DNA of 64,000 nucleotides, taken from the NCBI GenBank assembly GCA_963762565.1, contig CAVXLD010000007.1, positions 448,001 through 512,000 of the forward strand, in the 5' to 3' direction. The stretch is from an uncultured Verrucomicrobiae bacterium. Its GTDB lineage: Bacteria > Verrucomicrobiota > Verrucomicrobiia > Chthoniobacterales > JAFAMB01. Each line of letters begins with the position of its first letter. The stretch's first letter is position 1. This document shows, piece after piece, positions 2,905 to 63,703 of this stretch. The position numbers and the translations under genes are program-made. The notes below the pieces were generated by a model. That model had not been told where the DNA came from. It worked only from the letters and a program-made list of their open reading frames with translations, and searched no databases.

Positions 2905-3200
2905 GTTTGGTGTTGGCGTTCGGCGTTTTGCGTTTTGCGCTCGGCGTTCGGCGTTCGGCGTGTTGGCGTTTGGCGAAGCGCTCCGTAGGAGGAGAATATT
3001 TGTAGCTATGCCACGACGATCCGTAATGAGCTCCGTCAGGAGCGGCATACGGTTCAAGCGTCCTCATAAGCCTTGAACGCTTTGAGACGCGCCAGATGTC
3101 GCTCCCTCGGAGCAGTTCGTCATCATGGACATCGAAGGCTACAAATATTCCCTCCCATGGAGCTGCTTACCCGACACGCCGAACGCCGAACGCCAAACGC
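2905..3200. repeat. Palindromic intergenic repeat: GGCGTTY heptamer array and inverse GAACGCC array enclosing GCTCCGTAGGAG...AATATTTGTAGC / GCTACAAATATT...CCATGGAGC arms
   Basis: Tandem ggcgttc at 2905-2975, gaacgcc at 3175-3200; inner inverted repeats at about 2980-3006 and 3139-3163. Confidence 0.75.
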
Positions 3201-3351: not shown

Positions 3352-5025
3352 ATGAACGAAGAACGAGCACCCGAGTACGGTGGTTACAGTTCCGAGCCCG
3401 CAACTCCTCTCGAGATCTTAGAGAGAATCGTAGCAAGTCTTCCACCCGGTGACCCAACACGCAGCGAGATAATCGGCCTGAGGTCGAGCGTGGCGGAACA
3501 GGAAGAAGTGATTCAAGAGGCGCGGCAAACGATAGAAAAACTGGACGAAGTGATCAAAAAAGTCACTTCGCCGGCGAATCGGATCGGAACTTACCTTGGT
3601 AGCCCCAACAAAGAAACTGCCCAGATCGTCGTAGGTGGTTCCGATTACTATTGCAACGTCGATCCCCGGATCAACATCAACAAGTTAAAGAAAGGGACCC
3701 GCGTCTTGGTGAACGAGGCGTACGTCATCGTCGGAGACCTCGGATACGATCTTGCTGGGCCTGTCACCAAGGTCACGGAAATTCTTAGCAGTGATCGCTT
3801 GCGGGTAGGCCAAGAGCATGGCGTCCAGTCCATTGTGCTGCAGCGGTCTCAGGACCTCCTCAAAACCAATCTCAAAGTTGGCGATGAGGTAAGAGTGGAC
3901 TCGAACTTTAGGATTGCGATCGAGGTTTTAAGCCGGCCGACTACTCAGGATTACTACTTAGAGGCAGTACCGGAGATTTCTTGGAGTATGGTGGGAGGTC
4001 AGGAAGAAGCGCTCAGTGCGATCAAGGACGCGATCGAGTTGCCGCTATTGCATGCGGATCTCTTCTCCAAGTTCCAGCATCAAACTCCAAAGGGATTTCT
4101 GCTTTATGGACCGCCGGGGTGCGGAAAAACGCTGCTGGGGAAAGCGACAGCCTACAACCTGACAAAACAGCTCAAGGAAAAAACGGGCGAAGACATGCAG
4201 CAGTTCTTCATGCACATCAAAGGGCCGGAGATTCTGAATATGTGGGTGGGAGAATCGGAACGTCAGGTGCGCGAGATCTTCAATACGGCCAGGGAAAAGC
4301 GGAAAGAAGGCTTTATGCCGTTCATCTTTATCGACGAAGCCGAGAGTATTCTGGGTACGCGTCGAGCCGGCCGGTACTCGAGTATCCTCTCAACCTTGGT
4401 GCCGATGTTTTGCACCGAGATGGACGGGATCGAATCCTTAAACGAAGTGGTGATTATCTTGGCTTCGAACCGAGCGGATTTGATCGACCCGGCGATTCTG
4501 CGCCCAGGTCGAATCGATCGAAAGATAAAGGTGAGCCGGCCAGATCGAGCGTCCGCTTACGACATCTACAAGATCTATCTCACTGAAGATTTACCTTATG
4601 ATCCGGAGCTGGTAGAACAGAAGGGCGAGATCGAGGTGGTGGTCGACTATCTAGTCACGAAAGTGGTCGACGCTCAGTTCGCCAGAAAAGAAGAGAACCG
4701 GTTCTTGGAAATCACGCTAAGAAGTGGAAAGCGAGAGACGCTGTATAGGGGAGACCTGGTTAGCGGCGCCATTATCGCATCGGTGGTGGAGCGAGCGAAG
4801 GAACTCGCCATCAAGCGTGCCATCAATACGATGCAAGAAGAAGGGATCAGTGAATCCGATCTGTTACTCTCGCTGAACACCGAGTATGCAGAGAACGATA
4901 TCTTTCCGCCTACCGATATCGTGGAAGACTGGTTGAAACTAATTGATTACGATTCCGAGAACGTGGTGAAGGTAGTGCCAGTTCGATCAGGACCAAAGAC
5001 GTCGAAAACTTCCGATGTTATTTAG
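3352..5025 (+). CDS. arc: Proteasome-associated AAA ATPase (ARC/Mpa family)
   Basis: N-terminal coiled coil followed by OB-like region, Walker A GPPGCGKT, IKGPEILNMWVGESERQVR, Walker B FIFIDE, SNRADLIDPAILRPGRIDRKI; adjacent to dop. Confidence 0.9.
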   Translation: MNEERAPEYGGYSSEPATPLEILERIVASLPPGDPTRSEIIGLRSSVAEQEEVIQEARQTIEKLDEVIKKVTSPANRIGTYLGSPNKETAQIVVGGSDYYCNVDPRININKLKKGTRVLVNEAYVIVGDLGYDLAGPVTKVTEILSSDRLRVGQEHGVQSIVLQRSQDLLKTNLKVGDEVRVDSNFRIAIEVLSRPTTQDYYLEAVPEISWSMVGGQEEALSAIKDAIELPLLHADLFSKFQHQTPKGFLLYGPPGCGKTLLGKATAYNLTKQLKEKTGEDMQQFFMHIKGPEILNMWVGESERQVREIFNTAREKRKEGFMPFIFIDEAESILGTRRAGRYSSILSTLVPMFCTEMDGIESLNEVVIILASNRADLIDPAILRPGRIDRKIKVSRPDRASAYDIYKIYLTEDLPYDPELVEQKGEIEVVVDYLVTKVVDAQFARKEENRFLEITLRSGKRETLYRGDLVSGAIIASVVERAKELAIKRAINTMQEEGISESDLLLSLNTEYAENDIFPPTDIVEDWLKLIDYDSENVVKVVPVRSGPKTSKTSDVI

Positions 5026-9384: not shown

Positions 9385-9690
9385 AGCGAAACGGCGAGCG
9401 GGCGAAAGGGCGAGACGGCGAAGGGTCCGTTGAGTTTAGGCCCGTGGCTCGGCCACATGCGTCTTCGGCTTCGTGAGCGGATGGGACCTATGCGACTGAT
9501 AGGACTTATAGGTTGAGTGATCGGCGTTTCGCTCGCTCTTTCGCCCATTCGCTGGTGCGCCGGTGCGCCCTATCGCCGGTGCGCCCATTCGCCGGTGCGC
9601 CCATTCGCCGGTGCGCCCATTCGCCGGTGCGCCCATTCGCTGGTGCGCCCTATCGCCGGTGCGCCTTATCGCCCTTTCGCCGTTTCGCTC
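9385..9690. repeat. Inverted tandem arrays: GGCGAAA-type arm and about 8 copies of the 16-mer CGCCCATTCGCCGGTG
   Basis: Direct reading; perfect and near-perfect tandem 16-mers at 9542-9670 with no spacers. Confidence 0.85.
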
Positions 9691-10442: not shown

Positions 10443-10486
10443 TACGGAGGTAGGGGAGCCTAGAGAGAAAAGGAAACGCCGTCAAC

Positions 10487-10742
10487 GAGCGGGAACGGTA
10501 GGGCGAAAAACTCGGCGCACCCATCGCGAATCTCGCTATTAAACTATCCCGCGCCGGTTTTGAGCCGCGCCGTGGGGGCGGTATGCCCAGGAGGTGTAAA
10601 TTTTCCTAGTCGTAATAACCGATCCCATCAAAAGCGCGTGCCGCGGCCAACCGCACGGAGCGGCTCAAAACCGGCGCGGAGTAAGGCCGCGGAGCGGCCA
10701 TATCATCGGCGCGCCGAGTTTTTCGCCCTACCGCTCCCGCTC
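10487..10742. repeat. GTAG-type REPIN family A (GGTAGGGCGAAAA.CTCGGCGC...GCGCCGAG.TTTTCGCCCTACC)
   Basis: Long terminal inverted repeat plus inner TTTGAGCCGC/GCGGCTCAAA pair; copies at 34532, 56413, 63403. Confidence 0.85.
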
Positions 10743-10743
10743 G

Positions 10744-11802
10744 TTACTCCACTGCCGCGGCAATCGCCTGACCAACCTCGCTGGTGTTTGCTTTACCACC
10801 GATATCTCGGGTGCGTGGACCGTTGGTTAAAACGCTTTCGATCGCCTTCAGAATCGAAGCTGCCGCGTCCGGTTGTCCTAAATGTTCTAACAGCATCGCT
10901 CCGCTCCAGATCTGAGCAATCGGGTTTGCGATCCCCAAACCGGCAATGTCCGGTGCAGATCCGTGAACCGGTTCGAACATGGACGGAAATTCTCTCTCCG
11001 GATTGAGGTTAGCCGAAGGAGCGATGCCGATTGTGCCTGTTACCGCCGGACCTAAGTCGCTCAGGATATCGCCGAACAGGTTGGAGCCGACTACCACGTC
11101 GAACCAATCCGGGTGCTGGACAAAGTGTGCCGTCAAAATATCAATGTGGTATTGGTCGACTCGGATCTCGGGGTAGTGCGCCGCCACGGCTTTCACTCGT
11201 TCATCCCAAAATGGCATGGTGACGGTGATCCCGTTACTTTTGGTGGCGGACGTGAGATGTTTCTTGGGCCGGGACCGCGCCAGCTCAAACGCGAATCGAA
11301 GGATGCGATCAACTCCCCGCCTGGTAAACACCGTTTGTTGAGTGACGACTTCATCTTCGGTGCCATCGTAAATGCGCCCGCCGATAGAGGAATATTCGCC
11401 TTCGTTATTTTCGCGAACGATAAGAAAATCGATGTCGCCGGCTTTACGGTCTCGCAGAGGCGATTCTATGCCTGGCATTAATCGCACCGGTCGCAGGTTG
11501 GCGTATTGCCGAAAGTGTCTCCGAATCGGGATCAGAAGCCCCCAAAGAGAAACATGGTCGGGGATCGGAGGGAACCCGACTGCTCCCAGGAAAATTGCAT
11601 CGTTGTCCTTGAGTTGTTCCAGACCATCCTCGGGCATCATACGCCCAGTCTTTTGATAAAACTCGCAGCTCCAAGGCAACTGATTCCATTGCAAAGCGAA
11701 CCCGTGTTTTCGGCCCGCCGCTTCCACGACACGGATCCCTTCAGGGACAACTTCTTTCCCTATGCCGTCGCCGGGAATGGTGGCGATGCGATAACTTTTC
11801 AT
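10744..11802 (-). CDS. ttuC: Tartrate dehydrogenase/decarboxylase (isocitrate/isopropylmalate dehydrogenase family)
   Basis: IPGDGIGKEV, PDHVSLWGLLIPIRR, RENNEGEYS, TSATKSNG..TMPFWD, SNLFGDILSDL, FEPVHGSAPDIAG. Confidence 0.9.
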   Translation of the reverse strand: MKSYRIATIPGDGIGKEVVPEGIRVVEAAGRKHGFALQWNQLPWSCEFYQKTGRMMPEDGLEQLKDNDAIFLGAVGFPPIPDHVSLWGLLIPIRRHFRQYANLRPVRLMPGIESPLRDRKAGDIDFLIVRENNEGEYSSIGGRIYDGTEDEVVTQQTVFTRRGVDRILRFAFELARSRPKKHLTSATKSNGITVTMPFWDERVKAVAAHYPEIRVDQYHIDILTAHFVQHPDWFDVVVGSNLFGDILSDLGPAVTGTIGIAPSANLNPEREFPSMFEPVHGSAPDIAGLGIANPIAQIWSGAMLLEHLGQPDAAASILKAIESVLTNGPRTRDIGGKANTSEVGQAIAAAVE

Positions 11803-13260: not shown

Positions 13261-13312
13261 GTGATTGGTGATTGGTGATTGGTGATTGGTGATTGGTGAT
13301 TGGTGATTGGTG
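13261..13312 (+). repeat. Perfect heptamer tandem (GTGATTG)x7
   Basis: Direct reading; inverse CCAATCAC units at 13539-13566. Confidence 0.95.
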
Positions 13313-13521
13313 CAGCAAAGGCTCCCGAAGGACCCGGTGACAATGCGAGGAAAATCCGCGAACACCTGGACTAATTGGTGAGCGATGCCTAAAAACGCGC
13401 CGAGCCGTAGCCGAGCGATAGACCACGGCTCGGCGCGTTTTTCGACGTAGACGTACTGATGGCTAGGTGAATGTCAGAGGCTGCGCTGTAGCGCTCGGTC
13501 CGTCGGGAGCCTCGCCCTACC
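13309..13521. repeat. REPIN family B (..GGCTCCCGAA...TCGGGAGCCTCGCCCTACC)
   Basis: Same ends and inner CGCGCCGAGCCG/CGGCTCGGCGCG hairpin as the copies at 25107 and 29071; same ends as 23725. Confidence 0.75.
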
Positions 13522-13567
13522 AGTAAGCGCTGCCCGCCCCACCAATCACTCCAATCACTAATCACGC

Positions 13568-17342: not shown

Positions 17343-17465
17343 TAAGTAAGCGGTAAGCGGTAAGCAGTAAGCGGTAAGCAGGGTGTCAGCCCAACCCGAA
17401 TTTGGCCGCAGAATCTCTGTACTGCCGACCGCTTACCGCTTACCGCTTACCGCTTACTGCCTTAG
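17343..17465. repeat. Inverted heptamer arrays (TAAGCRG)n / (CYGCTTA)n
   Basis: taagcgg taagcgg taagcag taagcgg taagcag ... ccgctta ccgctta ccgctta ctgcctta; same family at 55798-55950. Confidence 0.9.
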
Positions 17466-30378: not shown

Positions 30379-30427
30379 TCCTTCGATCGCACCGGTCATC
30401 AATAGGGCGGGACAAGGCGTAGCGGAG

Positions 30428-30640
30428 CGGAGTGATGGAGTAGCGGAGTATTGGAGTAGCGGAGTATTGGAGTGATGGAGTGATGGAGTGATGGAGTGAT
30501 GGAGTGATGGAGTGATGGAGTGACTGGAGTGATGGCCAAGCGGCGATTCCGCCGCCAGAGTGCTCCAAGACGCGGCTTCGCCGCTGGTCTCACACCACTA
30601 CTCCGCTACTCCAATACTCCAGTACTCCAATACTCCGCTA
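30428..30640. repeat. Inverted octamer arrays (GGAGTRNN) x about 13 / (NNYACTCC) x5
   Basis: Direct reading. Confidence 0.9.
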
Positions 30641-32270: not shown

Positions 32271-33166
32271 GCGTCGTGGTTCTTCTTAGTGGTGGGATGG
32301 ATTCTGTGGCCGCATTTTACGATGCGATGTCGCGCCACGAGGTCGTCGCTGCGATTAGTTTTGATTACGGAGCGAAACATAACCACAAAGAGATCCCATT
32401 TGCTGCCGATCATTGCCGTAAGTTCAAGGTTGGGCACCAGGTAATCTCGTTGGATTTCGTGAGCGATTTGTTCAAGTCAGACCTGTTGAAGTCTGGTGGC
32501 TCCATACCGGATGGCCACTACGAAGAGCAGACCATGAAAAGCACCGTGGTCCCTTTCCGGAATGGTATCATGCTGTCGATCGCTGCCGGGTTTGCCGAAA
32601 GCAAAGGGGCAGCCGGACTAGTGATCGCGGCACACGCCGGCGATCACGCGATTTATCCGGATTGCCGGGAGGAGTTCATGAAATCAATGGCAGATGCGAT
32701 TCGCCTCGGCACTTACGCCGGCATCACCTTGTTGCGGCCGTTCATTTCCATGACAAAAGCAGACATCGCCAGGCGGGGCCATGCTCTTGGTGTTGATTTC
32801 GCTCAGACGTGGTCCTGCTATAAAGGCGGTGCACTTCATTGCGGCGCCTGTGGCACCTGTGTAGAACGCCGAGAAGCCTTTATCATAGCGGGTATTCCCG
32901 ATCCTACGAAGATATGCAGCGAAGGAACCCATTCCGCCAAGACCCAGCGTGGTCCGATAGACCTTCGTAATCGTTCTCGTGCTCGTCCTCGTCCTCGACG
33001 AATCAACCCAGCGTTCCTTCGCCGATTTGGTTTGGATCCTGACGGGGATCGAGCGAGAATAACTCTGGGCAGAAAATACCCAATCGAGGACGAGGACGAC
33101 GACGAGGACGAGTACGATGAGGCGGGACGGGAGCGGCACCTACCAGCGCTGGCAAAGCCGTGCTAG
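32267..33166 (+). CDS. queC: 7-cyano-7-deazaguanine synthase; apparent frameshift near 32909, natural end probably 32960
   Basis: LLSGGMDS, FDYG..H, VVPFRN, YPDCR.EF, TWSCY...CG.CG.C..R; the last ~85 aa read through a repeat. Confidence 0.93.
   Translation: MSVVVLLSGGMDSVAAFYDAMSRHEVVAAISFDYGAKHNHKEIPFAADHCRKFKVGHQVISLDFVSDLFKSDLLKSGGSIPDGHYEEQTMKSTVVPFRNGIMLSIAAGFAESKGAAGLVIAAHAGDHAIYPDCREEFMKSMADAIRLGTYAGITLLRPFISMTKADIARRGHALGVDFAQTWSCYKGGALHCGACGTCVERREAFIIAGIPDPTKICSEGTHSAKTQRGPIDLRNRSRARPRPRRINPAFLRRFGLDPDGDRARITLGRKYPIEDEDDDEDEYDEAGRERHLPALAKPC
32970..33120. repeat. Inverted hexamer arrays (TCGTYC)n / (GACGAG)n
   Basis: Same family at 8552-8695 and 35413-35570. Confidence 0.8.
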
Positions 33167-33873: not shown

Positions 33874-34029
33874 TTGGGGGGAGGAGTTCAGGAGTTCAGC
33901 CTGGGGTGAACCACAAATTTCAAGCAAAAATTCGCCTATGACTGTAGTATGGAATTGACCAGTTACTGTCGCTTGCGGCCTCCTGAACTCCTGCAACTCC
34001 TGAACTTCTGAACTCCTTTGTTTTCCGCC

Positions 34030-35396: not shown

Positions 35397-35662
35397 GCCC
35401 GGACCGGGCATCATCGTTCTCGTTCTCGTCGTCGTCCTCGAAGGGACGCTTTCGCAAGCCTCCAGGGCCTCAATCGCGAGCGGGCGCCTTGGTTAGGTCT
35501 CAACCTGTATCGGCAGCAGCACCAACAATCGAGGACGAGGACGACGACGAGAACGATTACGATTACGAGCGCCCGAAGAGAACGAATGTGAGGCTACGAA
35601 CAAAACTCGAGTATGCGTGGCTCCTATGCGCATCCCCATATCTGAAGTCCACCACCCAACAT

Positions 35663-40884: not shown

Positions 40885-43362
40885 ATGAAAGAGCGCCTCT
40901 CTCCGGTTGTTTTTTCGCTATTGCTTGCCTCTATCGCAGTCGCGCAGCAGAACTCTAGTCAATTGCTCGACGCTGGTTTTACCACGCCGATGTTTGAGTA
41001 CCGACTGGCTTTGCGTAGTGCCTGCCACAAACTAAACGTGGCTCTCAGGGAGGAAGCCGGTGGCTACCACGGAAACGGTCAGGACCTTCTGTTTGCTCAG
41101 GCCATGGTTTCAATCGGTCAACTACTCGATGATTCCTGGTTAACTCTAGTTGGATTCCACTACTGGGGTAATATCGAGCTGTACCAAGCAAAATATCCGG
41201 CCGCACTTGAGCATAGCAAAGCGGCTCTTCGATGTCTTGCTCCCCGGTTTGATATTGACCATCCGGCAACCATCGACTTTGCGAAACTGTCCCAGATCGA
41301 CTTCAAGAATGCCGCTGCCCTGCAGTTTGACGAAATCGCGGTTATTTTTACTAACTGGCAAAAGTTTGATTCTGCTGCGGAATACGCTCGGGCGGCGATC
41401 AAACTTTTGCGACTGGAGAAACCGGGTAACGACGCTCTGCTGGCTAATGCCACGGACCTTTGCGCGACTGCTCTTGAGCAACAGGGACGCTGGACCGAGG
41501 CCCTTCATGGTTACGAAGACGCTAGAGACGTATTAGTTGCTACGCTGGCCAAGCTATCTCCATCCGACCGAATAGCGGCTTCCGACACCAAGTTGGTGCT
41601 GGCTGATACGTGGCGTTCAATCGGATACCTCAAATTGGAACATCTTCAGCGCTCTGATAGACCCGAGGCTCTAACTGATTTTCGGGAGAGTCTGCGTCTA
41701 GCGGAGGAGCTGCGTACTCCCTACGAGGTTACTGAAGGAAAACTTGCGTTGGCGATCTATTTCTACGAGACCGGTGATCTCGATCAATCCCTTTCCTGGG
41801 CCAACGCCGCTGCGGCGTTAGCCGACCCAAGTGCGCAGGGCAGCAACGCTGACACGTTATGGAAAGCGCTTTCTATCCAGGGAAAATGTCTAATCGGATT
41901 GCAGCGATTTGAACAGGCTGAGACGGTGCTTCGCCAAGCAGTCGACGTTATCGAGGGGATGCGCAAGGAAGCGGGGATCGATCGCAGTTCCGCGTCGAGT
42001 TTTTACGACAGTATCGCCTGGTTCTTCGCGGAAAAGACCGGAGCATATGTGGCGCTTGCGCAACTTTTTGCCGACCAAAACCGGAATCTCGATGCGTTGA
42101 AATACACTGAGCTTTCGAGGCAACGAGCTCTGTTGGATGCGCTGGCTAAAACCGGATCCGTAGATGAAACAGCGCAGCCTTCCTTTGTGCGTAATGAGAT
42201 AGGAGCTGCCGGGTTAAGTGAATTAATTCCAGACGAGAATACCGCCATCGTCGAATACTTGTTAGGAGCCGACCGCGGTTACGCTTTTGTGCTGAAGAGG
42301 TCCAAGTCGCCTTTGCCGGTCACAATAACGGCAGTTCCGCTAACCTACCCAAAAGTAGTTCAATCGAGTTCTTTGAGCAGTTCGCTGCAATCACTTGACG
42401 CGCTGGTTGATCACTTCCGCAATCAGATAGAAAAGAGCTATGCTGCTTATCCCAAAGAGCAGGCCGAAGCCCTCTTCAATTGCTTGATCGCTCCGATTGT
42501 GCCCGACATAGCCAACGAACGCGCGGTCGTTTTTGTTCCCGCAGGCAAACTCTGGGAACTTCCGTTTCAGGCGTTGCCTGCAATCGATAAGGAAAAGCAT
42601 CGATATCTGATAGAAGACTTCGCAGTTTCGTACGCGCCCTCTCTAGCTGTGCTTTCTCATCTGCGAGCAGTGCCTCGTCCTGCTTTATCGCGAAGCTGGA
42701 TGTTGGCGATAGGGCAACCCACTATCAAACAGGACGAACCGGAGAATTTTAAGGAGATCACTGGCACCGGGGAAATCGTTCAAGATCTGGCGACCCTATT
42801 TGGCTCTGATGTCGTTAAAAGCTATACGGGTGCGGAAGCGACTAAAGCCAATTTTATGGCTGAGGCTCCGTCAAAGCCGGTCATATTTCTGGCTACCCAT
42901 GCGTTCCTCGATGGTGAAGATCCCCTTAGTTCCTACTTTTTACTTAGTCCGATGCCGAGTCAGTCTGGTAGTGAACGTTTAACTACCTCCGAGATCTTAT
43001 CAATGGGGCTGGCCAGCCGCATGGCGCTTCTGTTTGCCTGCGATACGGAGCGCGGACGGATTGTCCAAGGCGAAGGCGAGATCGGTCTAGCCTGGGCTTT
43101 TCTCCATGGGGGCTGCCTGGCGACGTTAGTGAGTCAATGGCCGGTGGAATTAAGGGCGACAGCAAAACTTTCTTACTTTTTCATGAGCGATCTGAAGAGG
43201 GAACTGAATACATCGAGCGAGACGGCTTTTTCAATTTCAGAGTTGCTGCGCGATGCGCAATTACGACTGTTAAATACCGACGAGTTCAACCATCCTTTCT
43301 ACTGGGCGGGAATGGTGTTAGTGGGCGATCCCAACTGGCGTTCGCAGTCGATTACTCCTTGA
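40885..43362 (+). CDS. Exported TPR-repeat CHAT-domain protease 2
   Basis: Signal peptide AVA-Q; TPR helices; VP.G.LW.LPF.AL, SYAPS, FLATH, LFACDT, SQWPV, HPFYWAG.VLVGD. Confidence 0.9.
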   Translation: MKERLSPVVFSLLLASIAVAQQNSSQLLDAGFTTPMFEYRLALRSACHKLNVALREEAGGYHGNGQDLLFAQAMVSIGQLLDDSWLTLVGFHYWGNIELYQAKYPAALEHSKAALRCLAPRFDIDHPATIDFAKLSQIDFKNAAALQFDEIAVIFTNWQKFDSAAEYARAAIKLLRLEKPGNDALLANATDLCATALEQQGRWTEALHGYEDARDVLVATLAKLSPSDRIAASDTKLVLADTWRSIGYLKLEHLQRSDRPEALTDFRESLRLAEELRTPYEVTEGKLALAIYFYETGDLDQSLSWANAAAALADPSAQGSNADTLWKALSIQGKCLIGLQRFEQAETVLRQAVDVIEGMRKEAGIDRSSASSFYDSIAWFFAEKTGAYVALAQLFADQNRNLDALKYTELSRQRALLDALAKTGSVDETAQPSFVRNEIGAAGLSELIPDENTAIVEYLLGADRGYAFVLKRSKSPLPVTITAVPLTYPKVVQSSSLSSSLQSLDALVDHFRNQIEKSYAAYPKEQAEALFNCLIAPIVPDIANERAVVFVPAGKLWELPFQALPAIDKEKHRYLIEDFAVSYAPSLAVLSHLRAVPRPALSRSWMLAIGQPTIKQDEPENFKEITGTGEIVQDLATLFGSDVVKSYTGAEATKANFMAEAPSKPVIFLATHAFLDGEDPLSSYFLLSPMPSQSGSERLTTSEILSMGLASRMALLFACDTERGRIVQGEGEIGLAWAFLHGGCLATLVSQWPVELRATAKLSYFFMSDLKRELNTSSETAFSISELLRDAQLRLLNTDEFNHPFYWAGMVLVGDPNWRSQSITP

Positions 43363-44659
43363 GCCGACGGATCTCTCCAATCATGCGATTCAGGAGGTCT
43401 TTGGCAGCAGAGGTCTGGCCGGGCTCGGCTAACAGGCTCTCGAAATCAGCTTGGGCATCATCGAGAAGACCAGCCTTTAGATTCAACAAGCCGTCCAGCA
43501 AGCGGTCGCTACCAATCTCTCTTTTCGACGTGTTCAATTGAGCCACCTCTCCTTGGCTTAACTCAGCAAATTTTGCTTGGGGTTCTTCCACGCCGGGAGC
43601 ATCGATTTCCTGATCGTTTCGAACGGCCGTCACGTACCAGCGGTAACGCACACCTGAAGTAAGGGATATCGACTCGGGTATCGACCATTCACAAGTATTT
43701 GAGTCCGCCGTTGGCGCAGGAATAGCGGGACTAGTTGCGACCTCTTCCTGAGTTCGGTCGTCGGCAATCACATGAACTATGTAAGCGGTCGCACCTGGCG
43801 CAGCAGCCCATTTGAACGCCGGCCGCTCAGAGCTTATCAGGGTGCGATTCGGGCTAATCACATGAAAAGGAGGCTTGGCTGGCGATTGGCCAAGCAAAAC
43901 TGAAGGGGGCCTCTTTAGATTATCTAACGCGTCTTTAACGCTCTGCGAAAACTCGGGGGTCTCGTCCCGCGAGACTGAGCTTACCAGGTTGTTCATCTCA
44001 GCCAGCTCTTTCTTTGGCAGAGCAGCGGGCGGATTTTTGATTTCGTTCGCTTCGAACGCGATGTGGTGATCCCCGTCGAGCACCGCGATTTGTAGCCTCG
44101 ATCCGATGTCCGCAACCCCGGGCGTCGATGGGGAGCGAACTACGATAATGCCTATCGCTACGATAAGCGCAGCGGCCGCGGCCGTGCCCGCGAGGATCAA
44201 CGGCTGCTTGAACCAGGCAAGAAATCCGAGTTTGTCGCGGAGAAAACCCAATGCGCCACCAGATTCAGGGGTGGCTGAGGCAGACGACCAGGAGCTGGTC
44301 CCCGGCGTGTACTCCCGGCGAGGTGTCTGCAGTAGCTCTTCGCGAAAAGGCTTAAGGTCCGCCAAGCTGCGTTGGCAGAGCTCGCAAGTCCCAAGATGTG
44401 CCTCCAGGTCAACCCTGTCCGAACGAGTTAGATCGTCGTCCAAATAGGCTCCCAGCGTATCGGCTGAAGGATGTTCCTCGTTCGGCGTTTCCGGCAAAAC
44501 AGCGTCAACAAGCGAACCGGGCTTAGTCGTTCTCAAAGCCGATAGTTGCTCCCGGCAAGCGTCGCATTCTCGAAGATGTTTGATGACATCGAGAGTCTCC
44601 TCCGGGGAAAGTAACCGCGCCAGGAAGCGATGCTGTAGTTGTTCGGAAATGTGATCCAT
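43352..44659 (-). CDS. Tandem zf-HC2 (ZAS) anti-sigma-like membrane protein, paralog 2
   Basis: KHLRECDAC and AHLGTCELC; TM PLILAGTAAAAALIVAIGIIVV; C-terminal P.F.W...Y.W.V beta domain; N-terminus clearly homologous to the 36303 gene. Confidence 0.8.
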   Translation of the reverse strand: MDHISEQLQHRFLARLLSPEETLDVIKHLRECDACREQLSALRTTKPGSLVDAVLPETPNEEHPSADTLGAYLDDDLTRSDRVDLEAHLGTCELCQRSLADLKPFREELLQTPRREYTPGTSSWSSASATPESGGALGFLRDKLGFLAWFKQPLILAGTAAAAALIVAIGIIVVRSPSTPGVADIGSRLQIAVLDGDHHIAFEANEIKNPPAALPKKELAEMNNLVSSVSRDETPEFSQSVKDALDNLKRPPSVLLGQSPAKPPFHVISPNRTLISSERPAFKWAAAPGATAYIVHVIADDRTQEEVATSPAIPAPTADSNTCEWSIPESISLTSGVRYRWYVTAVRNDQEIDAPGVEEPQAKFAELSQGEVAQLNTSKREIGSDRLLDGLLNLKAGLLDDAQADFESLLAEPGQTSAAKDLLNRMIGEIRRLKE

Positions 44660-44764: not shown

Positions 44765-45021
44765 TTAACCGCGAATGGACGCGAATCGGAACCGCGAATG
44801 CACACGAATGAATAGCCGCAAAAGAACGCAAAGAACGCAAAAATGAGAAAGATTCCCTCGTGATGAGGGTCTTAGGGGACTCAACGACTGAGGCGTGAGA
44901 TGCCGAGTCCGTTCCTTTTGAGGCCGGTTCCTTTTTTCGCGTAAATCCGTATCCATTCGCGGTTGATTTTATCTGCCTCTATCTGCGTTCATCTGCGGTT
45001 GAACTTCGTTGCGTTCTTTGT
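44765..45021. repeat. REP-like palindromic cluster (AACCGCGAAT.., AGCCGCAAAAGAACGCAAAGAACGCAA arm); the right arm is split by the mobile element
   Basis: aaccgcgaatgga / tccattcgcggtt pair; arm at 44808-44840 complementary to 45009-45021 joined to 46709-46728. Confidence 0.8.
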
Positions 45022-46705
45022 ACTGCAATAACAACATTTCGTTCGTTTTCGCGAGGATTTTAGGCCGCCATTTTGGTAAGCTGGTCGACGTCGCAGTGGC
45101 GTGCGGCAAGCAAAGCGGTGACGATACGTTGTCCGGTTTTTGTGAGGTGGTAACGATGAGTGCCGGAGACTTTTTGCAGGATTCCATGAGCGCGCAACAG
45201 TGCCAGGCGGCGGGTGATGGCAGCGGCTTGGCGAAGTTGTAGCTTTTTATTAGGGGTCTTGGAGTGAAGCAGTTTTCGTAAATCGCGGTTGCGCAACCCA
45301 TTCAAGCGGAACTCACCCCGATTGATCGCTTCCAATAGCGCACCATCCTCATCGGTCCAGGGGTTGAGAGCACGGTAACGTTGGCCCTTAAGAACTACGG
45401 CTCGGCAAACGCCTAGTGCTTCTTGGTAAAGAGGGGTTTTGCCCGTTGTGCTAGCTAAGGCTTGGAGATAGCGCCGATTAGCAGCTTGGCTGACTTGAGC
45501 TCTTCGCCATAGATCGGCAACTCCAAAGCGCAACGGCAGCCACTTGAGCACTTGCTCGGGATCTCCCTCACTAGCCCGATAAACCTTAAACTGTTTGGGG
45601 TCATTAATGGTGGTCTCTACGCGCAAAATCAGGGCTTGCTTGTCGTAGAGCTTAAGTGAGTTGGCGTTGACACTATGGCGGAGGCGAACTCCTTCGGGTC
45701 GCTGCTTCAGGGTGCTGGTCACTTGACCCTGACATCGAGTTGGCCGGCGCTGGCCAAGGAAGCGCAGCACGTCGGGGCTAGCAAAACTACTAATGCCGTG
45801 ATGTAAAAACTGTGGGTAAAGTGCAGCTAGACTCCTGGCATCTTTAAAAAGCAGATCGGTGGCGTACTCGCTTTGGGCCGCGCTCCAGTAATAACCCTGA
45901 CCCAAAGGAGCGCAGAGCTCGGAGTGTAAGGGATGGCATTGATCAAGCAGAGCGTTTAAGACTTGGGGCCAGTCGGTGTGCAGTTGTTCATCAAGCAGGG
46001 CCTGTGCTGCCACCGCATCCTTTAGTTTGATAAAGCAGTTGTCCGCCTTTTGATACCTCAGCCCGGCTCGATCCATTTGCCGAGCTAACCACTCCCGACC
46101 ATTGAGGCAGACTTCCACTGTAAAAGGAAACCAACTCTGCACCCGTACATGCATCAGTCCAAAATCGGCATGCATGAAGTAGTGATAAAAGTGGGTACAC
46201 ATCCGAGGCTCGATCACTAGATGAATCTCTTTGCTGGTTCGATCACCTCGTACCGAATAGGAATAGCAAGGTTCCTTAGCGCTAAAGAGCACGATCAAGC
46301 CCTTCTTTATCCTGTCCTCTAAAGCAATCTGGCGTGCGTAGTCCTCTTTGGATAGTTTTGGACTGCTCAAATACTGCGCCGGTCGCTTGGCGGCTGCTGC
46401 GGCGCGGTAAGCTGCGGCCTTGACTTTGGCGGTCACACTCTCGGCAAAGTGTTTAAACTCCTTGATGAGCACTCCACAACTGCACAGATAACGTTCCATG
46501 GCCGCGGGCTGAAACAGCAGCCGTAGTGTTCCTCTAAACCGAATCCGGTCGAATCCAGAAAGAATCCCCGTGACGTTCTCTCCAAATTTGCTAAGAAAGC
46601 TCTCTGGAACCCCGTGGGTCGCTGGTATTGGTTGAGTCTTCACACACCAGCTTTTATCAAGCCCCCACGGTGTTCCACCATGATTTGGTTGCGGCTTTGC
46701 CGCGC
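45022..46705 (-). mobile_element. Insertion element without terminal inverted repeats, inserted into a REP arm; flanked by TGT direct repeats, with a terminal GCGGC-TTT-GCCGC hairpin
   Basis: Removing it restores a 33-nt arm matching 44808-44840 at 31/33 positions; TGT at 45019-45021 and 46706-46708; single large ORF. Confidence 0.8.
45060..46643 (-). CDS. Putative transposase/relaxase-like protein (Rep_trans-like YDK...RVE motif, C-terminal winged HTH)
   Basis: GFDRIRFRGTL, SLKLYDKQ..ILRVETTIN, C-terminal ITRRLALLRAHGILQKV..THRYHLT; fills the element. Confidence 0.7.
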   Translation of the reverse strand: MKTQPIPATHGVPESFLSKFGENVTGILSGFDRIRFRGTLRLLFQPAAMERYLCSCGVLIKEFKHFAESVTAKVKAAAYRAAAAAKRPAQYLSSPKLSKEDYARQIALEDRIKKGLIVLFSAKEPCYSYSVRGDRTSKEIHLVIEPRMCTHFYHYFMHADFGLMHVRVQSWFPFTVEVCLNGREWLARQMDRAGLRYQKADNCFIKLKDAVAAQALLDEQLHTDWPQVLNALLDQCHPLHSELCAPLGQGYYWSAAQSEYATDLLFKDARSLAALYPQFLHHGISSFASPDVLRFLGQRRPTRCQGQVTSTLKQRPEGVRLRHSVNANSLKLYDKQALILRVETTINDPKQFKVYRASEGDPEQVLKWLPLRFGVADLWRRAQVSQAANRRYLQALASTTGKTPLYQEALGVCRAVVLKGQRYRALNPWTDEDGALLEAINRGEFRLNGLRNRDLRKLLHSKTPNKKLQLRQAAAITRRLALLRAHGILQKVSGTHRYHLTKTGQRIVTALLAARHCDVDQLTKMAA

Positions 46706-46720
46706 TGTGCTCTTTTGCGG

Positions 46721-47788
46721 CTATTCATCTGGACTCCTGCTTTGCATTCGCCGGCGTAGGGTGAAGCGTGCCTGACTGCGCAGGTTCACAACGGTTTGCC
46801 TCCGGATCCCTAGGAGACGCGCAATTTGCTGATCGTCCAGGGGTAATCTCGGTAGCACGGAAAGAATCTGGGTTAGCGAGATACCGAGCGACGCGGCGAG
46901 ATCTTGGAGCGTTGCTACTTGGCTCAGTTCGAAATCGAGCAAATCTTCTGCCTTTAATAGGAGCACCGCCCGTTCTTTTCGGTCCAATCGCTGGAGTTGT
47001 TCCCAGAAATTTCTAAGCCGTTCGCGGTTCAGAGATTCGCCGCGAGTTGGTGCTTCGGGTTGTTGGGTTCTCAGCAGCGACTCCAGGTTTCTGTGGTCTA
47101 AGGAAACGCGTTGATCCTTGACCTGTAAGATAAAAGCGACGGCAGTCACGAAATCGTTCCAGGGTAACGGACCGCCTGCCTGTTGGAGCGCCCAGGCGGC
47201 AATCTCCGGGAGAGGTGATGCTGGCGAAGGAAGGTCTTCGATCGAGTTCTGCTCCAAGAGATCAAAGTGCGGAACCGGACCGACGTGTTTCTGGCGCCAG
47301 AGCGTAAAGCCCGCGAGGGAGCCATGCTTAGCGTCCTGCCATTTGGTGAGGCCGGTTTGGCCCGCGCTTTCCCGGCAGAGATAGGCAAGTCTGAAAGAGA
47401 GCCGTGTCCAAAGTGGGGTCTCGTCACGCACCGCTGCTCGCCACGTGTTGAAGCTGGCCCCGGCAACATAAGCGCGGAAGGCGCCAATCCGGTTTTTTTC
47501 GGGTGTGGCATAGACCTGCCAGAGATGGCCCGTGAGCGCCATCAAGGTTTGTTGGCGAAGGTCCTGGGCGTCGAGGTCGCGCTGGTCAATGAACCCAGGG
47601 TTCCGGGATATCGAGGCCGCACCCAGACGCTGGTTGATGACCTTTTGAATGATGCTCAACGCCTCCGTCCGCAGGAGTGCGTCTAGCTCGTCTTTGGCCG
47701 ACGCTTCATCCGGCGCCAACAGGAACGAATGCAACAACACATCTTGCCCGGCCACTCGGCGATCTGCATCTATCTTACGTCGTTCCAT
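46721..47788 (-). CDS. Atypical long ECF-like sigma-70 factor (355 aa)
   Basis: Region 2 DAQDLRQQTL...FRAYVAGASFN; region 4 LQRLDRKERAVLLL...DDQQIARLLGIRRQTVVNLRSQAR, with large insertions. Confidence 0.7.
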   Translation of the reverse strand: MERRKIDADRRVAGQDVLLHSFLLAPDEASAKDELDALLRTEALSIIQKVINQRLGAASISRNPGFIDQRDLDAQDLRQQTLMALTGHLWQVYATPEKNRIGAFRAYVAGASFNTWRAAVRDETPLWTRLSFRLAYLCRESAGQTGLTKWQDAKHGSLAGFTLWRQKHVGPVPHFDLLEQNSIEDLPSPASPLPEIAAWALQQAGGPLPWNDFVTAVAFILQVKDQRVSLDHRNLESLLRTQQPEAPTRGESLNRERLRNFWEQLQRLDRKERAVLLLKAEDLLDFELSQVATLQDLAASLGISLTQILSVLPRLPLDDQQIARLLGIRRQTVVNLRSQARFTLRRRMQSRSPDE

Positions 47789-52014: not shown

Positions 52015-52322
52015 GCGTGCGGCGAAACGGCGAAAGGGCGAAAGGGCGATCTGAGGCGCGAAGCGCTGGTCAGATCTTAGCCTAGGCTGAGCCTGCGAGG
52101 CCTAGGTAGAACGGAACAAAACGGGTTAGCGCTGAAAGCGCGAAAGAACCGAGTCGAGTTCCACGCGCGGTCAGCAGCATCGCGATCTTTCGCGCTTTCA
52201 GCGCTAGTCGCATTTCTTGCGCACAGTTCCTAGGCCTCGCAGACTCAGCCTAGAGGCTAAAGTCTGACCAGCGCTTCGCGCCTCAGATCGCCCTTTCGCC
52301 CATTCGCCGATACGCCCACACG
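52015..52322. repeat. Long nested inverted-repeat (MITE/REPIN-like) element
   Basis: gggcgatctgaggcgcgaagcgctggtcaga / tctgaccagcgcttcgcgcctcagatcgccc; inner gcgctgaaagcgcgaaaga / tctttcgcgctttcagcgc. Confidence 0.85.
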
Positions 52323-54648: not shown

Positions 54649-54959
54649 CTCTCTTTCTCCCAGGATTCTTCCTAACAGGATAGCACGCCACACGCGAGTG
54701 GGTAAGCGGTTTGCGTTCGGCGTGTAACGTTTGGCGTTCGGCGTTCGGCGAGGCGTGTGGGCGAACGGGCGCTGTGGGCACTCGCCCATCTCGGGAGAAA
54801 TCAACAGACGGGACCCATAGGACCTGTTGAACTAACGAGAGAATCAGTCGCACAAGTCCCATTTGTCCATAAGTCCCATCCGTTAACAGCGTCGCACGCA
54901 CCTGATACCAACACGCGCCCTTTTGCCCACACGCAACGCCAACGCCGAACGCCAAACGC

Positions 54960-55763
54960 CTACCCAAATAGCCGGTCACTGTTCTCTGCGCAGATTTTTA
55001 CTAGATCGGGCAAGTCGACTTTCCGCAGCGAAGCCAACGCAGTGTAGACCGCTTTGATATTTCCAGGGTGGTTAATAGTCTCGCCGTTTGATGCCGGAGG
55101 TAGCCGGAATTCGCCGTGACTGTCGGGCAAGGGCATCGACGGTGCATCAGTTTCGACCAGTAACCGATCCGGACGAATCTGGCGGAACGGCGACAAACGC
55201 TGTTCTTTGCCTGGGTTCAAAAAATATCCCGAGAAAGAAAAATAAGCGCCAATCTCGGTGAACGGTCCGACTAACTCGGAGGGACCGCTATAGGCGTGTA
55301 ACAGAAACCCTCGCGCCGGGAGCCGCTCCGAAGAAAGAAGGTCGAACAGCTCTTCCCAAGCATGCAAACAATGAATCGTGATGGCGCGCTGGTTACGTTC
55401 AGCAATCTCGAGGCTATGCCGGAGGATCTCGGTTTGAGCCGGGAGATCTGGATCCGGCATCCAGAGATCAAGCCCAACCTCGCCCACATGCGCCTTTGGG
55501 TCCGCAATCAGGCGTTGTTCCAGGCGGTCTTCCCAACCTGTTTGTTTCTTAATCAGATACCAAGGATGTAGCCCATAACTGGGTGTTACAAACCGGTATC
55601 GCCCCGACAAATCCCTGATTAAATCCCAATCTTCTTCGGTGATCCCATTGACAATCATCCGTTTGACTCCAAGGCGTCCGCAGGCTGGAATTACTTGACC
55701 CAAAAACGGCTCCAAATTTTTTGCCTGGAGATGATTGTGGGCGTCGATGTAGCCGGCACTCAT
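54960..55763 (-). CDS. TatD family metallo-hydrolase/DNase
   Basis: IDAHNH, GLHPW, VGEVGLD, IHC, LHAYSG, LLVETDAP. Confidence 0.92.
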   Translation of the reverse strand: MSAGYIDAHNHLQAKNLEPFLGQVIPACGRLGVKRMIVNGITEEDWDLIRDLSGRYRFVTPSYGLHPWYLIKKQTGWEDRLEQRLIADPKAHVGEVGLDLWMPDPDLPAQTEILRHSLEIAERNQRAITIHCLHAWEELFDLLSSERLPARGFLLHAYSGPSELVGPFTEIGAYFSFSGYFLNPGKEQRLSPFRQIRPDRLLVETDAPSMPLPDSHGEFRLPPASNGETINHPGNIKAVYTALASLRKVDLPDLVKICAENSDRLFG

Positions 55764-55991
55764 ATGGGCGGGTTCGCTTCCTCGGAGAAATGGCGGATTA
55801 AGCAGTAAGCAGTAAGCGGTAAGCAGCAGAGGAGCCACGCGCCAGAATCCAGGCGCCAGGAGGTCATGAGGTCCTCGGCGAAACACGCGATGCATACGCG
55901 TCCACCCAGCGCATCTCCCGGCTCCCTCTACTGCTTACTGCTCACTGTGCTCACTTGTATTGGTCCTAGCGGTGTGCAGCTCCAATGTGCG

Positions 55992-56412: not shown

Positions 56413-56676
56413 GGTAGGGCGAAAATCTCGGCGCGCCCACGATTCCCCTTCTCGATGCGGCATCCCGCGCCGGATTTGAGCCGCTCCGTGCGCATGCTTT
56501 CGCCTAAGAACAATGTCGTGTCCACCCCGTCCCATTCAACGCGACACACGGATTCATGGCGCCACTCAAACAGTAACGCCATGGGCAGAGGCCAACCGCA
56601 CGGCGCGGCTCAAATCCGGCGCGGACAACCGATGTTAGCTGGCACACCGTCGACGCGCCGAGATTTTCGCCCTACC
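56413..56676. repeat. REPIN family A copy
   Basis: ggtagggcgaaaatctcggcgcg ... cgcgccgagattttcgccctacc. Confidence 0.85.
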
Positions 56677-56788: not shown

Positions 56789-57514
56789 ATGGAGCTTTTG
56801 AGTTGGATCACAGAACCGAACCTTTGGGCGAGCCTGGCCACGCTCACTTGTCTAGAAGTTGTCCTCGGCATCGACAATGTCGTCTTCATTTCCATCGTAA
56901 CCGGCAACCTGCCGGAACGAGATCAGCCCAAAGCCCGTGTGGCCGGCATAACGTTGGCATTGCTGACCCGAGTACTGCTGTTGTTCTGTATTTCTTGGTT
57001 AACGACCCTGACCGCGCCCTGGTTTCACCTTTTTGAAAGAACTTGGTCTGCCAAGGATATCGTGCTGCTGGCCGCGGGGCTCTTTCTGATTGGGAAGGGT
57101 ACTCGCGACATCCACGAACGGCTCGAAAACGTAGAACGACGTGTGACCAAGCCAACCCATGGTCGAGTATGGGCAGTTGCATTCCAGATCATGTTTCTCG
57201 ACATTTTATTCTCGTTCGATTCCGTGATTACCGCCGTCGGTATGGCTCAACAATTGGCTGTGATGGTGACGGCAATTGTATTGGCGATGTTGTTGATGTT
57301 GGCCGCATCCGGCGCGATCAGCCGGTTTGTCAACCAGCATCCCACCATCAAGATGCTGGCGCTCGCCTTTCTGATCCTAATCGGCGTGCTGCTCGTGGCT
57401 GAAGGCCTTGGCCAGCATGTCGATAAAGGATACATCTATTTTGCCATGGCCTTCTCAACACTGGTCGAGATGCTGAATCTGCGTGCCGGACGGCGAACCG
57501 AAGGTGAGAAGTGA
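56789..57514 (+). CDS. TerC family integral membrane protein
   Basis: LEVVLGIDN..FI, QI..LD..FS.DSVITAVG, HPTIKMLAL.FL..IG, KGYIYFAMAFS. Confidence 0.93.
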   Translation: MELLSWITEPNLWASLATLTCLEVVLGIDNVVFISIVTGNLPERDQPKARVAGITLALLTRVLLLFCISWLTTLTAPWFHLFERTWSAKDIVLLAAGLFLIGKGTRDIHERLENVERRVTKPTHGRVWAVAFQIMFLDILFSFDSVITAVGMAQQLAVMVTAIVLAMLLMLAASGAISRFVNQHPTIKMLALAFLILIGVLLVAEGLGQHVDKGYIYFAMAFSTLVEMLNLRAGRRTEGEK

Positions 57515-57662
57515 GAGGTGAGAGGTGTAGCGTGTCGGGTAAAGATGCGCCGCCAGGTGTGTTGGGGTGATCGTACTGAATTGCCGGTGTGAGTGGTGCT
57601 GTCCGTTTCGTGAAATACCTCTCACTTCTCACCAATCACTTCTCACCTCTCACATGCGAGGC

Positions 57663-63325: not shown

Positions 63326-63349
63326 GAGGGGTGGCTGCAATGGCGTGTC

Positions 63350-63656
63350 GGCGAATGGGCGTGTGGGCGAGACGGCGAAAGGGCGAAAGGGCGAAACGGG
63401 TCGGTAGGGCGAAAATCTCGGCGCGCCCGTGACAGACCATTTCTAACGATGTCTACGCGCCGGATTTGCGCCATGCGTGCGCGCTGTAATGTTGAGCACG
63501 TCATCGTTCTGAGGACCATCCAAGCCAGTGAGGTAGCAACCCCACGGCGCGGCTCAAATCCGGCGCGCCTACACGTGATCTGATGGTCTATCTTCGGCGC
63601 GCCGAGATTTTCGCCCTTTCGCCCTTTCGCCCTTTCGCCCCTTCGCCCCTTCGCCG
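63350..63656. repeat. REPIN family A copy nested in (GGCGAAA)n / (TTTCGCC)n heptamer arrays
   Basis: Direct reading, core at 63403-63616. Confidence 0.85.
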
Positions 63657-63703
63657 AGTCACCACGCCGTTGCCAGCTGTCACCGAGCGGCCTATGATAT
63701 CTG

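Follow-up and report, generated by a model that had tools for sequence, protein, structure and literature searches.

What is the 1.7-kb stretch of DNA that interrupts an intergenic palindrome in an uncultured Verrucomicrobiae bacterium, and what kind of enzyme might have moved it there? The locus lies in a 64,000-nucleotide stretch of contig CAVXLD010000007.1 (positions 448,001 to 512,000; assembly GCA_963762565.1), hereafter the window. A first-pass annotation, made from the DNA letters and a list of open reading frames (ORFs), had described it as a mobile element that lacks terminal inverted repeats (TIRs), encodes a Rep_trans-like enzyme and targets a repetitive extragenic palindrome (REP). 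Our analysis leads us to read it as an autonomous element, similar to an insertion sequence (IS), of an undescribed family that is moved by a Rep_trans-like tyrosine nuclease via single-strand or rolling-circle transposition, and we assign this reading a probability of roughly 60%.

The inserted element occupies positions 45022 to 46708 on the reverse strand (1687 bp, each boundary ±2 nt). It carries a single ORF, its ends are asymmetric, and it has neither a TIR nor a target-site duplication (TSD). It splits the far arm of a palindromic unit. The intact arm of this unit (44767–44840, forward strand) consists of tandem 9–12-nt repeats (TRF rows 44767–44842), and its segment 44808–44840 is the partner of the split arm, which is found in a proximal part (44945–45021, forward strand; inverted repeats I2–I5) and a distal part (46709–46730, forward strand; repeat I1). 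Joining the flanks 45009–45021 and 46709–46728 and taking the reverse complement gave a 33-mer that is identical to 44808–44840 at 31 of 33 positions, and the split arm, once rejoined, equals the intact arm in length. The two halves were recovered independently of each other by a repeat search, in which 44808–44830 paired with 46706–46728 (I1, 23 nt, 91%) and 44829–44840 with 45009–45020 (I5, 12 nt, 100%). Within the window the intact arm is a unique sequence, and none of 100 shuffles matched it at ≤3 mismatches. On the ORF strand, the left flank terminates in ...ATGAATAGCCGCAAAAGAGC and the right flank resumes with ACAAAGAACGCAA, and the insert itself opens with ACAGCGCGGCAAAGCCGC... and closes with ...TTATTGCAGT. 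An A or CA is common to both junctions, which leaves the boundaries uncertain by 1–2 nt. Comparison with other copies of the element put the 5′ boundary at 46708 ± 2, set by homology with five copies from Burkholderiaceae, and the 3′ boundary at 45021/45022. No inverted repeat linking the two ends was found by the repeat search (seed 9, minimum 12 nt). The insertion that the first-pass annotation had placed at 45019–46708, with flanks that rejoin and without TIRs, is therefore borne out.

The two ends of the element differ. A conserved 5′ terminal block, CACAGCGCGGC-AAA-GCCGCAACCAAA (46684–46709, reverse strand), matches the window once with no match expected, and its core AGCGCGGC..GCCGCAACCA is invariant in the four loci compared below. 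Within this block, about 6 nt from the element end, lies the subterminal hairpin GCGGC-TTT-GCCGC (46691–46703) that had been noticed upstream of the ORF, with a 5-bp stem and a 3-nt loop. Its place is kept across eight aligned elements, in which 39 of the 40 stem cells are paired and compensatory changes are seen in two of the five pairs (G-C to C-G in one, C-G to A-T in the other). The covariation score was reached by 3 of 500 shuffles, and controls slid along the alignment paired at ≤59%; these values come from eight elements only, and the structure was derived from the same sequences. The 3′ non-coding end (45022–45059, reverse strand) carries the block AAAATCCTCGCGAAAA directly after the stop codon and terminates in ...GCAGT(A), as judged from four aligned 3′ ends. 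A 3′ hairpin is clear in one related locus, L003 (z −5.6), and is not significant in the window copy (z +0.88). The non-coding regions of the element are 65 nt and 38 nt long, and no Rfam RNA matched anywhere between 44600 and 46900.

Other copies of the element, with conserved ends, were found both in related genomes and on plasmids. A scan of genome contigs returned four loci, L001 to L004, the last of which runs off its contig and was left out. The proteins of L001, L002 and L003 are 67%, 81% and 44% identical to that of the window. All three share with the window a 5′ end of the form ...(CA)CAGCGCGGC-NNN-GCCGCAACCA... and a 3′ end with AA(A/C)ATC(C/T)TCGC just past the stop codon and a terminal ...GCAG(T/C)(A/G); outside these conserved ends, the flanks of the four elements are unrelated. 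The copy in L002 (896–1720) is internally deleted; at 859 bp instead of ~1690, it retains both ends intact and sits in its own palindrome. In L001, the copy from Verrucomicrobia, ~190 nt that are absent from the window and L002 copies separate the 5′ hairpin from the ORF (3770–3990). This extra stretch, built from CACAGAG and CACGGAT repeats much as the palindromic units are, is bracketed by GCCGCAACCAAAG and GCCGCAACGAAAG. The arrangement suggests that such repeat units may themselves insert into the element.

A subfamily on large plasmids of Burkholderiaceae encodes proteins that are ~26% identical to the window protein. Five plasmid copies, 93–100% identical over ~1813 bp, were found in four plasmids of Burkholderia, Caballeronia and Paraburkholderia, running from (C)TAACGAGGC-TCC-GCCTCAGACC... 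to ...CAAGGAATCTAG(C) with sharp ends, no TIR and no consistent TSD. Their left flanks are all different, and so are their right flanks except for one shared by two copies in Burkholderia sp. YI23. The short repeats that flank L001 and L002 (CGCGGAGGA, CAAAGAG) were considered as TSDs and are best explained by the tandem-repeat arms of the targets. The first-pass description of the insert as a mobile element without TIRs is supported; the insert also lacks a TSD, and neither Pfam nor NCBIfam assigns it to a known family. The YI23 plasmid (CP003090.1) has two copies of a 7458-bp segment that are 100% identical (L014, 2787–10244, and L015, 3549–11006). The duplicate starts at the 5′ end of the element, within one shared base, and extends 5.6 kb past its 3′ end; it contains a Na+/H+ exchanger gene.

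Several further features of the plasmid loci were recorded. Immediately next to the Caballeronia copy (L007, 75–1083), the DNA shares 78% identity with a stretch of another plasmid that carries the annotation IS110 family transposase, and the left flanks of L007 and L012 each contain a short segment similar to the 3′ end of the element in inverted orientation (GCTAC(A)TAG(G)AT(T)C(C) compared with GCTAGATTCC). A Mycobacterium riyadhense plasmid (NZ_OY970457.1; L009, 2840–4038) has three protein matches, and an IS4 transposase gene adjoins the copy that was fetched. A winged helix-turn-helix (wHTH) gene adjoining the element in L005 was considered as a relative and proved unrelated (E 0.095).

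The only long ORF of the element (45060–46643, reverse strand) starts with GTG and encodes a putative transposase of 527 amino acids, including the LKLYDK...LRVETTIN segment quoted in the first-pass annotation. For the catalytic part, searches of Pfam, NCBIfam and PHROGs at thresholds as loose as E≤10 gave no match, which agrees with the earlier remark that no DDE, HUH or serine/tyrosine recombinase motif could be recognised in the ORF. The C-terminal helical region (residues ~405–527; 45063–45431, reverse strand) is predicted to bind DNA through a winged HTH. The support for this part of the first-pass annotation is weak: HVO_A0261_N matches the window protein at E=0.0018 and 29 of 60 family members, all below the Pfam cut-off, and a profile search of Protein Data Bank (PDB) chains gave MarR and the PhiH1 repressor at E~0.15. 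Searches of PDB chain sequences with the single protein and with the profile returned weak wHTH and chance matches only.

Relatives of the protein are numerous. They make up 7846 of 8000 scored candidates, whose sources carry the name 'hypothetical protein' only, and an exhaustive HMMER pass gave 7426 clusters (50% identity) at E≤0.001, of which 881 were at E≤1e-30. Taxa encountered among them are Verrucomicrobia, Phycisphaeraceae, Opitutaceae, Candidatus Dormibacteraeota, Acidobacteriota, Planctomycetota, Burkholderiaceae, Rhodococcus and Mycobacterium. On plasmids, the matching regions were annotated for the most part as 'hypothetical protein' and once as 'ArsR family transcriptional regulator', and the ESM Atlas matches were confined to unnamed 'hypothetical protein' clusters; a tblastn search of 50,697 phage records gave no match. 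The longest contig was shorter than 3 kb for 96 of the 118 listed matches with contig data. Short contigs fit a repeat that breaks assemblies, as weak evidence because metagenome contigs are short anyway.

The case for a Rep_trans-like enzyme comes from a set of motifs and from the predicted fold. In the Rep_trans structures, catalysis is assigned to the tyrosine Y191 and metal binding to D46, D142 and E214; R140, D142, A144, D146, R212 and E214 are listed as conserved, and R189 and K193 are reported to be required for religation (PMC4797284). RepC of pT181 accordingly reads SFD46..., R140-L-D-L-A-F-D146, R189-I-Y191-N-K193 and R212-V-E214, and more distant Rep_trans proteins read S-x-D-R-(I/L)-T. 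The element family has, in order, G-F-D32-R33, Q257-S-E259-Y-A261-T-D263, F-L-G297-R, K331-L-Y333-D-K335 and R341-V-E343. Each motif falls on a predicted strand of its own, in the same order as in Rep_trans, such that D32 corresponds to D46, E259/D263 to D142/D146, K331-x-Y333-x-K335 to R189-x-Y191-x-K193, and R341-x-E343 to R212-x-E214. The proposed catalytic tyrosine, Y333 (codon 45645–45647, reverse strand), is part of strand 328–335 and has basic residues at −2 and +2, as is characteristic of Rep_trans, with R341-V-E343 on the next strand.

These residues are strongly conserved. Among 270 members examined, 217–257 of which cover each position, we found D32 in 217/217, E259 in 254/256, D263 in 253/257, K331 in 249/251, Y333 in 246/250, K335 in 242/251, R341 in 247/249 and E343 in 249/250. 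The motif residues are thus kept in 96–100% of the covering members, with the exception of Q257 (Gln in 192 and Glu in 56 of 256). Two other tyrosines, Y153 and Y155, are each kept in 250 of 253 covering members and lie on a strand of the sheet's first half. Individual blocks of the Rep_trans alignment, compared with the whole family profile, aligned in colinear order on the predicted sites (P = 0.017, 0.59 and 0.024; combined 0.041).

AlphaFold models were obtained for the window protein (predicted local distance difference test score, pLDDT, 92.6) and for a relative that is 31% identical to it, P0268 (pLDDT 91.1). In both, the DSSP order of elements is two beta-alpha-beta4-alpha repeats followed by a helical winged-helix C-terminus. 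The predicted curved-sheet core of the window protein (residues 14–400; 45444–46604, reverse strand) resembles Rep_trans proteins and the TATA-binding protein (TBP). Foldseek searches of the PDB with the window model placed 4CIJ (RepSTK1, a Rep_trans protein) at ranks 1–4 (E 1.3e-3 to 3.9e-3, prob 0.84–0.85), and with the P0268 model 4CIJ and 4CWE were found at prob 0.90–0.97 along with TBP chains. Matches in BFVD include TBPs, A0A345MNV4 and A0A2N9QVX7; the accessible part of the 2026 paper on the archaeal Rep-Arvir family describes A0A345MNV4 as an Inoviridae Rep_trans initiator and gives a similar match list for the distant Rep_trans relative studied there (PMC13107129). No RNase H-like structure was among the listed Foldseek matches of either model, and HUH enzymes never ranked above Rep_trans, with TraI at prob 0.30–0.41 for the window model. 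The DDE fold or known IS fold that had been named as an argument against the Rep_trans proposal was thus not seen among the listed matches, nor was a match to a transposase hidden Markov model (HMM). The protein, which lies outside Pfam PF02486, probably belongs to the Rep_trans/TBP-fold nuclease superfamily as a very distant member.

A number of observations weigh against this reading, and most concern the enzyme. PF02486 and PF22477 do not match the window protein at E≤10, in a search in which RepC, as positive control, matches both models, and PF02486 matches none of 60 family members at E≤1. Full-length hhalign comparisons with two Rep_trans alignments were not significant (Prob 0.1% and 0.3%), the best alignment in both runs pairing the D32 motif with the D46 motif. 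The Arg/Asp of Rep_trans motif I is replaced by Gln/Glu, the spacing of motifs III and IV is 8 residues compared with 21 in RepC, and ~200 extra residues separate the first two motifs. The Foldseek E-values are ~1e-3 with template modelling (TM) scores of ≤0.26 and ≤0.34 for the two models, and two glycyl-tRNA ligase chains top the P0268 list by E-value. The assignment of the enzyme is the weakest link: it and the predicted active-site pocket are based on fold probability and motif correspondence, rather than on a significant alignment score or measured geometry. The likeness to Rep_trans that had been read from the YDK and RxE motifs therefore stands at the level of the fold (4CIJ, 4CWE) and of colinear motifs, and does not extend to a significant profile score or a PF02486 match. 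With regard to mobility, the window has a single copy of the element in a search for second copies or solo ends with the 5′ block, no empty site or circular junction was found for it in a four-locus genome scan that is too small for an empty-site search or a target logo, and its 5′ hairpin alone is not thermodynamically unusual (z −1.46). In addition, one copy of the YI23 duplicate ends directly against an IS66 terminal repeat and other origins are possible, for which reason we regard its interpretation as a rolling-circle event that started at the hairpin end and failed to stop as suggestive only.

Among other explanations, the one that survives best accepts that the element is mobile and disputes the chemistry. 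The triad D32/E259/E343 on a TBP-like sheet would then form a hydrolytic metal nuclease or strand-transferase acting by cut-and-paste or copy-out, and the likeness to Rep_trans would be a convergence of fold and motifs. The absence of significant sequence-profile support for a Rep_trans link is in its favor, as are the TM-scores of at most 0.34 and the similar scores of the curved-sheet folds of RnlA and of class II aminoacyl-tRNA synthetases and biotin ligases. Nevertheless, we think it unlikely: Y333 is kept in 246 of 250 members and is placed between K331 and K335 as Y191 of RepC is between R189 and K193, an asymmetric hairpin end without TIR or TSD is unusual for DDE-type chemistry, and an RNase H-like match is absent from the listed Foldseek matches.

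It is somewhat less probable still that the element is an integrated rolling-circle replicon, of a minimal plasmid- or satellite-like kind, whose protein is an initiator and whose integration is a side reaction or host-driven. The known Rep_trans proteins in the accessible parts of the sources are replication initiators and relaxases (PMC5714925, PMC4797284), and the archaeal Rep-Arvir family also joins a Rep_trans-like domain to a wHTH (PMC13107129, available portion). However, the element is only 1.7 kb long and has no other gene, the phage records searched by tblastn contain no match, and all copies examined, apart from L004 at its contig edge, are in a chromosome, plasmid or metagenome-assembled genome (MAG) contig with host flanks on both sides. 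The chance that the gene is an ordinary host gene for a wHTH transcription regulator beside a palindrome is very small, since the 'ArsR family transcriptional regulator' among its RefSeq names and the single copy in the window are set against a precisely split arm whose flanks rejoin, non-coding ends conserved across 44–81% protein identity, five near-identical copies in different contexts and one internally deleted copy. Just as improbable is divergence, past HMM detection, from a known IS family of the DDE, DEDD, HUH or serine type: highly diverged transposases do escape HMMs, but Pfam, NCBIfam and PHROGs gave no transposase match even at E≤10, no transposase was among the 25 most frequent families listed for 60 members at E≤1, and the confidently predicted fold is not RNase H-like and brings no HUH enzyme above Rep_trans (TraI prob 0.30–0.41).

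If the element is indeed moved by a Rep_trans-like tyrosine nuclease, the following mechanism can be proposed. The enzyme would recognise the 5′ subterminal hairpin and nick one strand at the 5′ end, with Y333 as the nucleophile forming a covalent 5′-phosphotyrosine link and D32, E259/D263 and E343 as metal ligands. The strand could then be released in either of two ways, by displacement during rolling-circle copying with the 5′ end as 'ori' and the 3′ end as 'ter', or by excision of the element as a single-stranded circle; either IS91-like copying or IS200/IS605-like circle excision may apply. Joining of the released strand into a nicked target would leave no target duplication, and in this clade the targets would be intergenic palindromic units able to expose single strands. 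The polarity, with the 5′ end as origin, is proposed on the basis of general nickase chemistry, as described in the available part of a review (PMC5714925), and of the single YI23 duplicate.

Does the element target a REP palindrome, as the first-pass annotation had it? The window holds at least 14 palindromic units of ~100–350 bp, in which the two arms are inverted arrays of tandem 6–9-nt repeats whose sequence varies from unit to unit (for example GGCGAAAG, GTAAGCG, GGAGTGAT and TCGTCC). They are found at 2915–3200, 9386–9688, 13261–13559, 17346–17457, 30426–30640, 32971–33117, 33882–34017, 35414–35556, 52020–52318, 54713–54960, 55799–55947, 57502–57653 and 63342–63664, among others, and an inner core such as GGTAGGGCGAAAATCTCGGCGCGCC is common to several (10484–10745, 56413–56676 and 63399–63624). 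These units look like a genome-wide family of structured intergenic repeats. REPs and bacterial interspersed mosaic elements (BIMEs) are recognised by many near-identical palindrome copies, and in the 64-kb window the target arm sequence is single. Because this arm is not repeated and the units differ in sequence, we assign the target to a structural class of intergenic repeats and not to REPs in the strict sense.

Within the clade of the window element, three of four sites are palindromic (the window, L001 and L002, as opposed to L003), as scored by inspection for the window and by folding of the joined flanks for L001–L003. Folding of the joined flanks gave z −2.6 for L001 and −5.8 for L002, with 28–30 pairs across the junction, and z +0.95 for L003. 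In the plasmid subfamily, one of five sites is palindromic (L007, z −4.2). The targeting claim thus stands for palindromes at most sites of this clade, and not for a repeated REP or for the plasmid subfamily. The window and L002 have a common local site, ...CAAA(A)GAG^CAAAGA..., with flanks that otherwise differ, which hints at a sequence preference. The 3′ flank was considered as a possible copy of the hairpin loop (CAAAG in the window, CGTAG in L001), a view that L002 contradicts. Given that palindromic units fill much of the intergenic space of the window, the association may reflect the survival of harmless insertions as much as targeting.

On the reverse strand, the zf-HC2 anti-sigma-like protein gene (43355–44659) lies on one side of the insertion, beyond which a CHAT/TPR protein is encoded on the forward strand (40885–43359). 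On the other side is a 355-amino acid ORF (46721–47788, reverse strand) that has no Pfam match at E≤0.001 and whose stop codon (46721–46723) lies inside the distal part of the split arm; a 2-hydroxyacid dehydrogenase gene is also in the neighborhood. The 355-amino acid ORF is upstream of the zf-HC2 anti-sigma-like gene, from which it is now separated by the palindromic unit and the element. This position suggests that the ORF encodes a divergent sigma factor.

The closest known system is that of the Rep_trans initiators and MOBT relaxases (RepC and RepD of pT181 and pC221; RepSTK1, 4CIJ; RepDE/DN, 4CWC and 4CWE). Shared with these are the curved TBP-like sheet predicted for the element protein, with acidic residues on the first strand of each half, a beta-strand on which the proposed catalytic tyrosine has a basic residue two positions to either side (KxYxK compared with RxYxK) and which is followed by a strand with RxE, a predicted DNA-binding domain of its own at the C-terminus, and a DNA site that contains a hairpin (PMC4797284, in the text available). 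Apart from the profile, motif and length differences given above (no significant profile match, ~200 extra residues, Gln/Glu in motif I and a short loop between motifs III and IV), the element gene differs in that it resides in an integrated, multi-copy element of 1.7 kb and not in a plasmid, phage or integrative and conjugative element (ICE). The roles given to Rep_trans proteins in the accessible part of the review are plasmid and phage replication and ICE transfer, and rolling-circle transposition is described there for HUH enzymes only (PMC5714925). Like the archaeal Rep-Arvir proteins (DUF7845), the element protein combines a Rep_trans-like TBP-fold domain that is unrecognised by sequence with a following wHTH, and it matched the BFVD entries A0A2N9QVX7 and A0A345MNV4, both of which are named in the available text of that work; Rep-Arvir is described there as acting on a nearby DNA hairpin (PMC13107129). 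Unlike Rep-Arvir, the family lacks a DUF7845 match, is bacterial, and is found in integrated IS-like elements instead of viral or plasmid replicons.

Comparison with transposons leads to similar partial overlaps. The IS200/IS605 elements, which use the Y1 HUH transposase TnpA in a single-strand 'peel and paste' pathway, as in IS608, are likewise small, with asymmetric ends, subterminal hairpins and no TIR or TSD, and a tyrosine nuclease is expected for our element as well. The element nevertheless lacks an HUH motif or Y1_Tnp match, its protein has a different predicted fold and 527 amino acids compared with ~150, and a conserved target oligonucleotide is not established for it. With IS91, ISCR and Helitrons (Y2 HUH) it has in common distinct start and stop ends and the absence of a TSD, and possibly also read-through carrying 3′ flanking DNA, if the 7458-bp YI23 duplicate is compared with the IS91 model in the accessible part of PMC5714925. 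It differs from them in that its enzyme is not HUH and has no Pfam match, and the read-through is a single ambiguous case beside an IS66. The IS110/IS1111 elements found in REPs, such as ISPpu9, also have no TSD and little or no TIR and insert into extragenic palindromes, according to the portion of PMC12288879 available; the present element differs from these in its lack of a DEDD transposase match, its short non-coding regions (65 nt and 38 nt) and the absence of an Rfam RNA. No standard IS family was matched by Pfam, NCBIfam or PHROGs HMMs or by fold, and the first-pass annotation could not place the element in one either. Neither this family nor any Rep_trans-like or TBP-fold transposase was found in the open full-text literature, the scope of our search, with ISfinder and subscription journals outside it. 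We therefore use 'undescribed' in the sense of not found, rather than not in print, and the same applies to the statement that this enzyme type has not so far been described as a transposase.

IS elements are grouped by the chemistry of their transposases into DDE, DEDD, HUH-Y1/Y2 and serine types. Whether the elements studied here represent a further mechanistic class, with a TBP-fold Rep_trans-like tyrosine-nuclease transposase, a hairpin-marked origin end and a large, overlooked IS family (>7000 clusters at 50% identity, with records from Verrucomicrobiota, Planctomycetota, Acidobacteriota, Pseudomonadota and Actinomycetota), is a wider proposition on which we find the balance about even. 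If it is true, host DNA downstream of the element could be carried along on occasion, the list of classes above would be extended by a Rep_trans-like transposase, and both families of rolling-circle nickases would have given rise to transposons. A function would also be provided for a very large set of 'hypothetical' and 'ArsR-like' genes that are not now annotated as mobile; annotation pipelines call such genes regulators, and the elements probably break metagenome assemblies. The system, whose 1.7-kb element encodes one protein and has a defined hairpin end, is small enough to allow an easy test of site-specific cutting and joining of single-stranded DNA.

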